NCBI RefSeq assembly: GCF_003334785.1
Contig: NZ_QOWV01000006.1
Source: Escherichia coli
GTDB lineage: Bacteria > Pseudomonadota > Gammaproteobacteria > Enterobacterales > Enterobacteriaceae
Length of the DNA stretch: 64,000 nucleotides
Direction: 5' to 3' (one strand)
Positions within the stretch are counted from its first letter, which is position 1. Each line of letters begins with the position of its first letter. This document shows positions 905-7,296 of this stretch, one piece after another. Position numbers and translations under genes: made by a program. Under the pieces are notes generated by a model. It saw only the letters and a list, made by a program, of their open reading frames with translations, was not told where the DNA came from and did not search any database.

Positions 905-1540
905 TCAGATGTCAACTTTCTCTTTGTATTCACAAAGATCTTCAATAATACAAGAGCCACAGCGGGGCTTGCGGGCAATGCAGGTATAACGCCCGTGCAG
1001 GATCAACCAATGGTGGCAGTCGACTTTAAACTCTGCTGGAACCACTTTCAGTAGCTTTTCTTCTACCTGTTCGACGTTTTTCCCCGGCGCAAATTGAGTA
1101 CGATTACAAACGCGGAAAATGTGCGTGTCGACAGCAATAGTCGGCCAGCCGAATGCAGTGTTTAATACGACGTTGGCTGTTTTACGACCTACGCCGGGCA
1201 GGGCTTCAAGCGCAGCACGATCTTCCGGAACCTCGCCATTATGCTGCTCCAGCAAGATACGGCAGGTTTTGATGATATTTTCTGCTTTGCTGTTATAAAG
1301 CCCAATCGTTTTGATATAGGTTTTCACCCCTTCAACGCCCAGTTCAAGCATCGCTGCAGGCGTATTCGCCACCGGGTAGAGTTTCGCCGTCGCCTTATTA
1401 ACACTGACATCGGTCGCCTGAGCGGAAAGCAGTACGGCAATCAGCAATTCAAAAGGCGAACTGAAATTAAGCTCGGTGGTGGGATGAGGATTGTTCTCAC
1501 GCAGGCGAGTGAGGATCTCCAGGCGTTTTGCTTTATTCAT
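905..1540 (-). CDS. nth: Endonuclease III (DNA glycosylase/AP lyase, 4Fe-4S)
   Basis: 211-aa ORF; HhH-GPD motif (LPGVGRKTANVV) and C-terminal Cys cluster CIARKPRCGSCIIEDLC; last gene of the rsx-nth operon. Confidence 0.96.
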   Translation of the reverse strand: MNKAKRLEILTRLRENNPHPTTELNFSSPFELLIAVLLSAQATDVSVNKATAKLYPVANTPAAMLELGVEGVKTYIKTIGLYNSKAENIIKTCRILLEQHNGEVPEDRAALEALPGVGRKTANVVLNTAFGWPTIAVDTHIFRVCNRTQFAPGKNVEQVEEKLLKVVPAEFKVDCHHWLILHGRYTCIARKPRCGSCIIEDLCEYKEKVDI

Positions 1541-2235
1541 CAGACATTCCCTGTTTCACCGTTTGGCAATGCACGTTCTGCAGCTGCTTCAGCACGGCGC
1601 TTTTTCATTCTTTCATCAATCAGGTATTTTCCTGCCAGCATCAGTCCCAGGCCAATAAATGCACCTGGTGGCAGCATCGCCAGCAGGAAAGGGGAGTCGG
1701 TGTGGAAAATCTCCACGCGTAATACTTTTGCCCAGCTACCTAACAGCGCATCTGCACCGTCAAACAATGTGCCATTGCCGATAATTTCGCGTAGTGAACC
1801 CAGCACGAACATGGCGCAGGTTGCGCCCATACCAATTGAAAAGCCGTCCAGTGCCGAAAGCGCCGGACCTTTTTTGGCGGCGAAGGCTTCAGCGCGGCCC
1901 ACAACGATACAGTTAGTGACAATCAGCGGAATAAAAATCCCTAATGATTGATACAGGCCAAAGGCGTAGGCGTTGATCAGCATCTGTACAGCGCTGACCA
2001 CCGAGGCGATGATCATCACGTAAATGGGAATGCGGATCTCGGCTGGCGTCCAGTGACGCAGCGTCGAAATGGTCAGGTTGGTCAGCGTCAGTACCAGCGT
2101 AGTCGCAAGTCCTAAACCCAGAGCGTTAGTGGCAGTGGACGTGACCGCCAACAGAGGACAAAGGCCGAGCAACTGGACCAGCGCAGAGTTGTTTTTCCAC
2201 AACCCCTGAACAATAACGTCTTTAATTTCGCTCAC
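1540..2235 (-). CDS. rsxE: Ion-translocating oxidoreductase complex subunit E (Rnf/Rsx)
   Basis: 231-aa polytopic membrane ORF; stop overlaps nth start; position in rsxABCDGE cluster. Confidence 0.94.
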
Positions 2236-2238
2236 GCT

Positions 2239-3921: not shown

Positions 3922-6144
3922 TTAGTCCTCGTTTACAACCTTCTGCTGGGCGGCTTTTTTGGCCTGAGCGCGGGCAATAGCCGCGGCAACTGCCGCTTTG
4001 CGCGGATCAACCTGTTCTTCTGGTACCGCATTAGCCTGTTGCTGTTCCAGCTTGCGTGCTTTGGCGCGTGCAATAGCCGCTTCGACGGCAGCTTTGCGCG
4101 GATCAACCTGTTCTTCTGGCTCCGCATTAGCCGGTTGCTGTTCCCGTTTGCGCGCTTTGGCTCGGGCAATAGCGGCTTCGACGGCGGCTTTGCGCGGATC
4201 GACCTGTTGTTCTGGCTCGGCATTAGCCTGTTGCTGTTCCAGCTTGCGTGCTTTGGCACGGGCAATAGCGGCTTCGACGGCGGCTTTGCGCGGATCGACC
4301 TGTTCTTCTGGTTCCGCATTAGCCTGTTGCTGTTCCAGCTTGCGCGCTTTGGCACGGGCAATAGCGGCTTCGACGGCGGCTTTGCGCGGATCGACCTGTT
4401 GTTCTGGTTCCGCATTAGCCTGTTGCTGTTCCAGCTTGCGCGCTTTGGCGCGGGCGATAGCTGCTTCAACGGCAGTTTTACGTGGATCAGCAACGGTTGC
4501 TGCGTCGTTAGTTTGCTGCAGTTCTGCCTGTTTCGCTCTGGCTTGCGCTTTACGGGCTTCCCGTGCTGCAATAATTGCACTGTTATCCGGGCGTTCGCCC
4601 GCTTTAATCACAATAGGCTGTGTAGCCTGGGCCTGTTTCTCTTTCACCCGCGCCAGAGCGGCAGCAATCGCATCTTTATCTTTGGCTGCAGGTTGAACGG
4701 CTGCGCTCTTATGTCGTTCAAGGCGAGCCGCTTTTTCGCGCTCCAGACGAGCCTGGCGCGCTTCGAAACGCGCTTTGGCTTCTGCGGCGCGCTTTTCTTC
4801 CTGACGAATAGCCGCAATTTCAGCTTTTTCCTGACGGAAATATTGCACCAGGGGAATATTGCTCGGGCAAACCCACGCGCAAGCCCCACATTCAATGCAA
4901 TCAGCAATGTTATGCGTGGTAGCTTTATCGTGTTGCTGACCTTTGCTGAACCAGTACAACTGTTGCGGCAAAAGATCCGCAGGGCAGGCGTCAGCACAGG
5001 CGCTACACCGGATGCAGCTTTGTTCTTCCTGTGGTTCGCCAAGTTCATTGGCAGAGGGAGCCAACAGACAGTTGGTAATCTTTACGACCGGGACATCCAG
5101 CCATGGCAAGGTAAAGCCCATTAGCGGGCCACCCATAATCACCATTTGATCGGCAGAGGGGCAGAATCCGGCATCATTCAATAAATGACGCACTGGCGTC
5201 CCCAGCCGTGCCCAGACGTTGCCCGGGCGAGCGATTGCTTCGCCAGTCAGGGTTACAACACGCTCGGTAATCGGCTCGCCATCAATAACGGCACGTTTCA
5301 CTGCATAAGCAGTGCCGACGTTTTGCATTAATACGCCGATATCGGATGAACGCCCGCCATGTGGAACCTGCTTCCCGGTCAGAATGTAGGTTAATTGTTT
5401 AGCACCGCCAGAAGGATATTTGGTTGGAATCACCCGCAGAGAAATATCGTTAGAGTCCGCCAGCACCGCGCGCAGCATGGAAATCGCCTGCGGTTTGTTA
5501 TCTTCAATGCCGATAAGAATTTCGCGTGGCTGCAGAATATGCGCAAGAATGCGAATACCCTCTACGACCTGAGCCGCGCAATCCTGCATCAAACGGTCAT
5601 CGGCGGTAATGTACGGCTCGCACTCAGCCGCGTTGATAATCAACGTTTCAATCTTATCTCCGCCACCCTGCAATTTAACGCCTGTCGGGAATCCTGCACC
5701 GCCCAGCCCGGCAACACCAAACTGATGTATGCGCTCGATTAACTCTTCGCGACTGCGAGTGCGATAATCGGCCCAGCCGTCGCGCGGGATCCAGCAGTCT
5801 TCACCATCGGCATCAATAATCACGCTTAATTCAGCTAAAGCTGAAGGATGAGCCGTAGAGTGGGGCGCAATAGCCGTAACGGTACCCGAGGTGGGCGCGT
5901 GAACAGGCAGCATTTTGCCGCGACCACGGGTAAGCGGCTGGCCGCGCAATACTTTATCGCCGACGCTAACGCACAACTCACCTTCAGCGCCAATATGCTG
6001 TTTCAGTGGAATAACAAAACGCTGCGCCAGGGGTACCTGGCGCAGGGGTGTACCGTTGGACTGGGTTTTCATCTCCGGTGGATGGATGCCGCCGTTGAAA
6101 TCCCAGATTTTATTTTTTCTGAATGCAGAGAATAACTTAAGCAT
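3922..6144 (-). CDS. rsxC: Rnf/Rsx complex subunit C (NADH-binding, 2x[4Fe-4S]) with repetitive C-terminal tail
   Basis: 740-aa ORF; ferredoxin-type motifs [12 protein letters not shown] and [12 protein letters not shown]; C-terminus has tandem [32 protein letters not shown] units. Confidence 0.95.
3990..4500. repeat. In-frame tandem repeat array inside rsxC (about 5-6 copies, period about 96 bp, encoding 32-aa units)
   Basis: Directly visible periodicity in the nucleotide sequence and the translated protein; boundaries approximate. Confidence 0.85.
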
Positions 6145-6715
6145 GGTGTTCCACGGGAATGATACGCACGGGAATGGTGTTCAGATCCCATTTCCAGGAG
6201 TCAGGTGTTTCTGCGACCGGTTGCAACGAGATGCAGTGCGTCGGGCACGGATCAACACATAAATTGCAGCCCGTACAGAGATCACTCATTACCGTATGCA
6301 TGGCACGGGTAGCGCCAACGATGGCGTCTACCGGACACGCCTGAATACATTTAGTGCAGCCAATACAGTTATTTTCATCAATAACCGCCACCATCCGCGC
6401 AGGCGTTATCTCTTGCGCTTCGCCATCCAGCGGCTGCGGCTCGACATTAAGCAACTCGGCAATTTTTAGCATCACAGCTTCGCCACCTGGGGCGCAACGG
6501 TTGATTTTTTCACCGTTACAGCTGATGGCTTCCGCGTAGGGGCGACAGCCGGGATAACCGCACTGACCACACTGGCTCTGCGGTAAGATTTCGTCAATTT
6601 TCTCAACGACCGGATCGTCTTCCACCGCAAAACGGCGGGAGGCATAACCCAGAATGGCGCCAAACGCCAGGCCCAGCAGGCTCACGGCGGCAACGGCAAT
6701 CCAGATAGCATTCAT
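6137..6715 (-). CDS. rsxB: Rnf/Rsx complex subunit B (Fe-S ferredoxin-like)
   Basis: 192-aa ORF with multiple Cys clusters ([24 protein letters not shown]); 8-nt overlap with rsxC start. Confidence 0.95.
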
Positions 6716-7296
6716 TACAACTTCACCAAACCACTAAAGCCCATAAAGGCCAGAGACATAAGACCTGCGGTAATTAACGCAATGGCATTACCGCGAAAAG
6801 GTGCCGGGACATCAGCCACAGCAAGGCGTTCGCGGATGGCGGCGAAGAGCACCATCACCAGCGAGAAACCGACAGCGGCGGAAAAACCGTACAGCGCCGA
6901 CTGCAAGAAATTGTGCCCGAGATTGATATTCAGCAACGCCACGCCGAGCACTGCACAGTTGGTGGTGATAAGCGGCAAAAAAATCCCCAGCAGACGGTAA
7001 AGCACCGGGCTGGTTTTGCGCACCACCATCTCGGTGAACTGCACGACCACAGCAATCACCAGAATAAATGCCAGGGTGCGCAGGTAAATCAGATTAAGTG
7101 GGATCAAAATCCACGTATCGATAAGCCAGGCGCAAATAGACGCCAGCGTCATCACAAACGTTGTTGCCAGCCCCATGCCCATCGCGGTTTCCAGTTTTTT
7201 GGAAACCCCCATAAACGGACAGAGACCGAGAAACTTGACCAGTACAAAGTTATTGACCAGTACAGTTCCGACAAACAGTAACAGGTAGTCAGTCAT
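6715..7296 (-). CDS. rsxA: Rnf/Rsx complex subunit A (membrane)
   Basis: 193-aa hydrophobic ORF; first gene of the cluster; overlaps rsxB start by 1 nt. Confidence 0.95.

Follow-up and report, generated by a model that had tools for sequence, protein, structure and literature searches.

In a 64,000-nucleotide (nt) stretch of Escherichia coli DNA (RefSeq assembly GCF_003334785.1, contig NZ_QOWV01000006.1; this whole stretch is called the window below), the seven genes of the rsxABCDGE-nth operon are packed so closely that each of the six junctions falls between an overlap of 8 nt and a gap of 3 nt. This packing is real and non-random, yet it belongs to a common, well-described class. The first six genes encode RsxABCDGE, which the review literature, citing Koo et al. 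2003 and Lee et al. 2022, describes as a six-subunit complex that reduces SoxR, and the seventh gene, nth, encodes the DNA glycosylase endonuclease III. Judging from the spacing and from published work on other gene pairs, we consider it probable that coupled translation is a material factor at some, or most, of the six junctions.

All seven genes lie on the minus strand, an orientation that the original prediction, made from the sequence of the window, left unmentioned. The range given there (1538-7296) begins at the start codon of nth and ends at that of rsxA, with nth itself almost wholly outside it. In the order of transcription, the genes and the scores of their products against NCBIfam models are the following.

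6715-7296, minus strand: rsxA, the operon's first gene, 193 amino acids; RsxA equivalog model, 364.7 bits (cut-off 240)
6137-6715, minus strand: rsxB, 192 amino acids; RsxB model, 337.5 bits (cut-off 203)
3922-6144, minus strand: rsxC, 740 amino acids; RsxC model, 868.2 bits (cut-off 345)
2863-3921, minus strand: rsxD, 352 amino acids; RsxD model, 633.5 bits (cut-off 415)
2239-2859, minus strand: rsxG, 206 amino acids; RsxG model, 361.2 bits (cut-off 178)
1540-2235, minus strand: rsxE, 231 amino acids, GTG start; RsxE model, 365.9 bits (cut-off 184)
905-1540, minus strand: nth, endonuclease III, 211 amino acids; model NF007978, 486.3 bits (cut-off 405)

These coordinates agree among three sources, namely the list of open reading frames (ORFs), the RefSeq annotation of a strain that is 100% identical over positions 1-9000, and our own translation of the coding sequences. 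Several complete E. coli chromosomes match positions 1-9000 with 100% identity, and this segment carries, in the RefSeq annotation, dtpA, nth, rsxE, rsxG, rsxD, rsxC, rsxB, rsxA, ydgK, ydgT, blr, and ydgJ; up to position 57867, the window differs very little from strain ML35. All seven products exceed the cut-offs of NCBIfam equivalog or subfamily models, with six alignments beginning at profile position 1 and that of RsxC at position 2. Nth matches its equivalog model over the full length, and its residues 1-211 are identical to PDB chain 2ABK_A, the crystallized E. coli enzyme. Because the alignments begin at profile positions 1 to 2 and Nth equals 2ABK_A, the start codons, and with them the junction distances, can be trusted.

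The six subunit genes, each matched by its own family model, share one strand and run A, B, C, D, G, E; their spacings, from -8 to +3 nt (negative values are overlaps), leave no room for internal terminator-promoter pairs. The genes make up the operon already described for E. coli as rsxABCDGE-nth (RegulonDB; Koo et al. 2003; Gifford and Wallace 2000). RegulonDB, as reported by Elgamal et al. (2016, PMC5021804), treats the seven genes as one operon, and the title of Gifford and Wallace (2000), as quoted in citing papers, names nth as the terminal gene of an operon. With respect to the same operon in other E. coli, the differences amount to strain-level detail, namely an RsxC of 740 rather than 772 amino acids, which we ascribe to a 96-bp tandem repeat in rsxC. 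This repeat occupies window positions 3968-4489, in the 3' part of the minus-strand gene, comprises 5.4 copies with 91% matches, and encodes 32-residue repeats covering approximately residues 552-726 of RsxC. The length of RsxC varies more widely among relatives, although the ORF calls are rough: another E. coli locus (L004) has 772 amino acids, and the maximum, in Pseudoalteromonas (L074), is about 1,096. The start codon of rsxE (window 2233-2235) is GTG in E. coli and Escherichia albertii and ATG in nearly all other sampled genera.

Read 5' to 3' on the coding strand, which is the minus strand throughout, the six junctions are as follows.

rsxA/rsxB: TAATG, a 1-nt overlap, with base 6715 common to the rsxA stop codon and the rsxB ATG
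rsxB/rsxC, 6137-6144: ATGCTTAA, an 8-nt overlap, with the rsxC start inside the end of rsxB
rsxC/rsxD: TAAATG, 0 nt, with the rsxD ATG immediately after the rsxC stop codon
rsxD/rsxG: TAAACCATG, a gap of 3 nt
rsxG/rsxE: TAAAGCGTG, a gap of 3 nt
rsxE/nth: TGATG, a 1-nt overlap, with base 1540 common to the rsxE stop codon and the nth ATG

Direct reading and the RefSeq annotation thus both confirm the overlaps of 1 nt and 8 nt that had been predicted for rsxA/rsxB and rsxB/rsxC, and the gaps of 0 to 3 nt predicted for the next three junctions are indeed 0, +3, and +3. At rsxE/nth, the predicted overlap exists, but it is not of the ATGA type, which would be an overlap of 4 nt; the two genes share a single base.

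All six junctions of the operon fall into the class of -8 to +6 nt; of the 32 remaining same-strand pairs in the window, 3 do so. Among E. coli same-strand gene pairs in general, 707 of 2,987 (24%) are spaced in this way, and -4, -1, and -8 are the commonest overlaps (Huber et al. 2023). The chance of finding six of six would be 0.24^6 = 2e-4 if the junctions were independent, an assumption that fails, since tight junctions are found clustered in operons that encode heteromeric complexes. Such junctions were indeed reported to be enriched among the genes of heteromeric complexes (Huber et al. 2019 and 2023).

The most probable interpretation of these data is a standard operon for a complex that holds each subunit once; the rsx genes are then likely to be coupled to one another, and for nth coupling is plausible. 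In this scenario of termination-reinitiation, a ribosome that terminates on one cistron would already find itself at the start of the next and could reinitiate there. The passing of ribosomes from cistron to cistron would equalize the outputs of the six Rsx subunits, and an mRNA covered by ribosomes may also be protected from premature transcription termination, for example, at a hairpin that lies about 100 nt into rsxC. As nth comes last on this mRNA, the TGATG junction of E. coli would allow it to receive ribosomes from rsxE.

The spacing of all six junctions, on one strand and within -8 to +6 nt, is that expected for termination-reinitiation. In reporter constructs of three other E. coli gene pairs, reinitiation was reduced by 5 to 70% at a distance of +2 nt and by 80 to 100% at +38 nt, with overlaps or gaps of a few nucleotides giving efficient coupling, which is nearly lost by about 20 to 38 nt (Huber et al.). 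Among native overlapping pairs of E. coli, four of five were coupled (Huber et al.). The coupled pairs of Huber et al. 2019 and 2023 resemble the rsx-nth junctions in their overlap classes (-1, -8, and 0 to +3 nt), in having Shine-Dalgarno (SD)-like motifs, here weak to moderate, inside the 3' end of the upstream gene, and in encoding subunits of heteromeric complexes. Solved structures of Rnf complexes homologous to Rsx (8AHX, 7ZC6, and 9ERI) contain one RnfE chain per entry, which fits equimolar production. Since the spacing suits reinitiation and the genes supply subunits of a single complex, with one chain of each per solved Rnf structure, it is reasonable to suppose that the rsx genes are coupled to one another. 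The original prediction had gone further and suggested coupling of the membrane complex with the glycosylase; this suggestion fits the spacing as well, but it is weaker for the rsxE-nth link, where an overlap is frequent only in Enterobacterales.

An SD-like motif is located in the 3' end of the upstream gene at all six junctions, with pairing energies of -3.8 (rsxB), -3.3 (rsxC), -5.9 (rsxD), -4.5 (rsxG), -6.4 (rsxE), and -5.1 kcal/mol (nth), and the value for rsxA, at the head of the operon, is -2.5 kcal/mol. None of these motifs reaches -8.4 kcal/mol, the threshold for a strong SD sequence. The weakness of the rsxB and rsxC motifs and the lack of a strong one anywhere in the operon favor a dependence on upstream ribosomes. 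The weak-to-moderate values of rsx-nth differ from those at two plus-strand overlaps elsewhere in the window, whose predicted lengths of 4 and 14 nt we also found.

18800-18803, plus strand: uidA/uidB overlap, ATGA, 4 nt, preceded by a strong SD sequence for uidB (-11.1 kcal/mol)
39914-39927, plus strand: mdtJ/mdtI overlap, 14 nt, preceded by a strong SD sequence for mdtI (-10.6 kcal/mol)

The candidate transcription signals of the region are the following.

7325-7353, minus strand: promoter-like site, TTGTCG-17-GATAAT, 29 nt upstream of the rsxA ATG, a candidate operon promoter by consensus match only
6022-6045, minus strand: GC-rich hairpin followed by a T-rich tract, within rsxC (codons 34-41), with a 10-bp stem that includes 8 G-C pairs
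879-898: hairpin just downstream of the nth stop codon, whose T-run is on the plus strand and not on that of nth, a weak candidate for an operon terminator

Promoter-like sites in the region number 6, below the 7.8 +/- 2.2 found in shuffled sequences. Upstream of nth, no consensus site was found within rsxE, which is weak evidence against an internal nth promoter. The 610-bp intergenic region between nth and dtpA showed no clear intrinsic terminator for the operon, and an Rfam scan of positions 1-9000 returned no structured RNA element. The hairpin in rsxC (6045-6022 in the direction of transcription) is the strongest terminator-like hairpin of the region and lies about 100 nt past the rsxB/rsxC overlap. 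Elgamal et al. (2016, PMC5021804) described a NusA-dependent intragenic terminator in rsxC, located 16 nt after a PPE motif. We equate the hairpin with this terminator, an identification of our own, although by our count the hairpin lies 27 nt, not 16 nt, after the PPE codons (6081-6073).

We furthermore compared the operon among relatives. A scan with an alignment of seven RsxE sequences, retaining one genome per species, gave 80 gammaproteobacterial loci, in each of which the seven genes were placed by tblastn before stops and starts were called; the rsxC/rsxD or rsxB-start values of loci L009, L017, L044, L070, and L071 are uncertain. The first two junctions are nearly invariant across seven families of Enterobacterales, with rsxA/rsxB at -1 in 46 of 47 loci and rsxB/rsxC at -8 in 45 of 47. 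The rsxC/rsxD distance is 0 in 39 of 51 Enterobacterales loci. At rsxG/rsxE, the distance is -8, -4, +2, or +3 in almost all Enterobacterales loci and lies between -8 and +5 in 79 of all 80 loci, the exception being a value of +8 in one metagenome-assembled genome (MAG) of Enterobacterales. The +3 of rsxD/rsxG in E. coli is a minority state, as most Enterobacterales relatives have +9 or +10. The rsxE and nth genes overlap (by -1, -4, or -8) in 50 of 60 Enterobacterales loci.

Outside this order, in 20 loci of Vibrionaceae, Alteromonadales, and Aeromonadales, one MAG included, the junctions between the Rnf subunit genes are still tight. The rnfABCDGE operons of Vibrio, Azotobacter, Clostridium, and Acetobacterium share with E. 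coli both the gene order and the tight subunit junctions. Among more distant loci, L085 has a tight rnfABCDGE (+9, -4, -1, -1, -1) without nth, L084 has nth after rnfE with a spacer of +14 nt, and in L086 rnfE is followed by a 176-residue ORF and only then by nth. Since nth directly follows rsxE in all 80 gammaproteobacterial loci, these data separate two properties: tight junctions belong to the Rnf/Rsx subunit genes, and the linkage to nth is a gammaproteobacterial habit. The overlapping form of the rsxE/nth junction is largely an Enterobacterales feature, with nth of Vibrionaceae standing 10 to 318 nt away and some rnf operons lacking nth. What is conserved for nth is linkage, and presumably cotranscription, not a coupled junction.

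In Yersinia (3 loci) and Serratia (2 loci), 1.2 to 1.4 kb separates rsxC from rsxD. We examined the insert in two of these loci and found in both a gene of the Rob/SoxS/MarA family on the opposite strand, encoding about 295 amino acids (L019, 4893-5780, minus strand; L035, 5091-5984, minus strand). RobA is the NCBIfam model that matches this gene best, with a score (210 bits) that falls short of the cut-off (380). The position of such a gene is curious, given that Rsx is a reducer of SoxR, the activator of soxS.

Several observations weigh against the interpretation of the junctions as coupled. Every downstream start has an SD-like sequence of its own, and the six 70-nt junction segments are no more stable than dinucleotide-preserving shuffles (z of 0.02 to 1.0), so nothing visibly blocks independent initiation. 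For the same reason, we rejected a structure-based form of coupling, in which the upstream ribosome would melt a fold over the next ribosome-binding site. The bioB/bioF genes overlap and yet are uncoupled (Huber et al.); overlap is thus no guarantee of coupling. The rsxD/rsxG spacer of +9 or +10 nt found in most relatives carries an SD sequence and belongs to a class that is thought to initiate independently. The split between rsxC and rsxD in Yersinia and Serratia implies that unbroken coupling of the whole operon is not required for function. At rsxE/nth, the spacer measures 10 to 318 nt in 19 of the 20 non-Enterobacterales loci and exceeds 20 nt in 15 of the 20. Finally, we found no direct test of coupling in rsxABCDGE-nth in the searchable literature.

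Part of this evidence would suit an alternative in which the tight spacing is a by-product without a coupling function and each cistron is translated mainly by way of its own SD sequence. Compact genomes, and start and stop codons with bases in common, readily produce overlaps of the TAATG, TGATG, and ATGnnTAA kind. The SD-like sequences of -3.3 to -6.4 kcal/mol, the absence of any junction structure that hides a ribosome-binding site, and the bioB/bioF precedent are all consistent with this explanation, as is the drift of the spacing among relatives, which takes values of -8, -4, +2, and +3 at rsxG/rsxE, of -1, -4, and -8 at rsxE/nth, and of +3 or +9/+10 at rsxD/rsxG. However, rsxA/rsxB and rsxB/rsxC are nearly invariant over seven families of Enterobacterales, the SD sequences of rsxB and rsxC are weak, four of the five overlapping E. 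coli pairs that have been studied were coupled, with a steep fall with distance, and the genes of heteromeric complexes show an excess of tight junctions. We therefore regard a mere by-product as rather unlikely. A second alternative, to which we give more weight even if we would not bet on it, places the main benefit at the level of transcription: in a long, weakly expressed operon of 6.4 kb, an unbroken train of ribosomes would prevent Rho-dependent or hairpin-dependent termination, and the distal genes, nth included, would be transcribed. The rsxC hairpin argues for this possibility. Its position about 100 nt past the rsxB/rsxC overlap suggests to us that the hand-over of ribosomes into rsxC should aid read-through, and the published rsxC terminator works in vitro with NusA, the longer transcript being reduced 1.8-fold upon ribosome stalling at the PPE motif in a delta-efp strain (PMC5021804). 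The in vivo effect is nevertheless modest, and the rsxC evidence bears on only one junction of the six. Moreover, such a transcriptional benefit is compatible with, rather than opposed to, termination-reinitiation.

The position of nth invites a further explanation, namely that Rsx/Rnf acts together with endonuclease III, or services this [4Fe-4S] protein, and that the overlap serves the coproduction of partners. Its constant place directly after rsxE in the 80 loci, repeated in L084 and missed by one gene in L086, speaks for such a partnership, and earlier authors had raised the possibility that endonuclease III belongs with RNF, leaving the linkage unexplained, as noted in a review. Nevertheless, the rsxE/nth junction is not tight outside Enterobacterales, L085 has a complete rnfABCDGE operon without nth, and, according to the same review, other bacteria lack such extra subunits in their rnf operons, and what these subunits do is obscure. 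The solved Rnf complexes contain Rnf and Nqr subunits only, with no endonuclease III, and a shared regulation by oxidative stress would explain the linkage without physical contact. We hold this explanation of the overlap to be improbable, and we are similarly skeptical of the broader idea that the universal nth-rnfE linkage reflects a functional partnership, for example, one in which electrons from Rsx/Rnf set the redox state of the endonuclease III [4Fe-4S] cluster. We also considered an RnfE-Nth fusion as support for a partnership and rejected it. Among 18 long RnfE-family proteins, only P0062, from a single European Nucleotide Archive (ENA) contig of 3,620 nt, is of this kind; its 396 amino acids join RsxE residues 1-208 in frame with Nth residues 19-211, its cluster has one member, and it is probably a deletion or an assembly artifact.

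Elsewhere in the window, clcB (46492-47784, minus strand) has a premature stop at codon 138 (47371-47373), counted from the start annotated in ML35, and the window differs from ML35 at position 47372 within this stop. Judging from the sequence, clcB is probably a pseudogene in this strain. Convergent genes overlap at their 3' ends in three places.

27875-27878: fumC/tus, 4 nt
31365-31368: ydgC/folM, 4 nt
46492-46539: bioD paralogue/clcB, 48 nt

In conclusion, the finding is known in substance, as earlier publications already cover the operon, the cotranscription of nth, the overlap classes of -1, -4, and -8 nt, and the association of these classes with coupling. For the E. coli operon itself, it would have little consequence beyond bookkeeping, and the coupling interpretation, as far as our analysis goes, is a reasonable textbook one. 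The comparative result is of modest value: nth always adjoins rsxE in the sampled Gammaproteobacteria and overlaps it chiefly in Enterobacterales. A question dating from 2000, namely, what a DNA glycosylase gene is doing at the end of an electron-transport operon, is thereby put more sharply.

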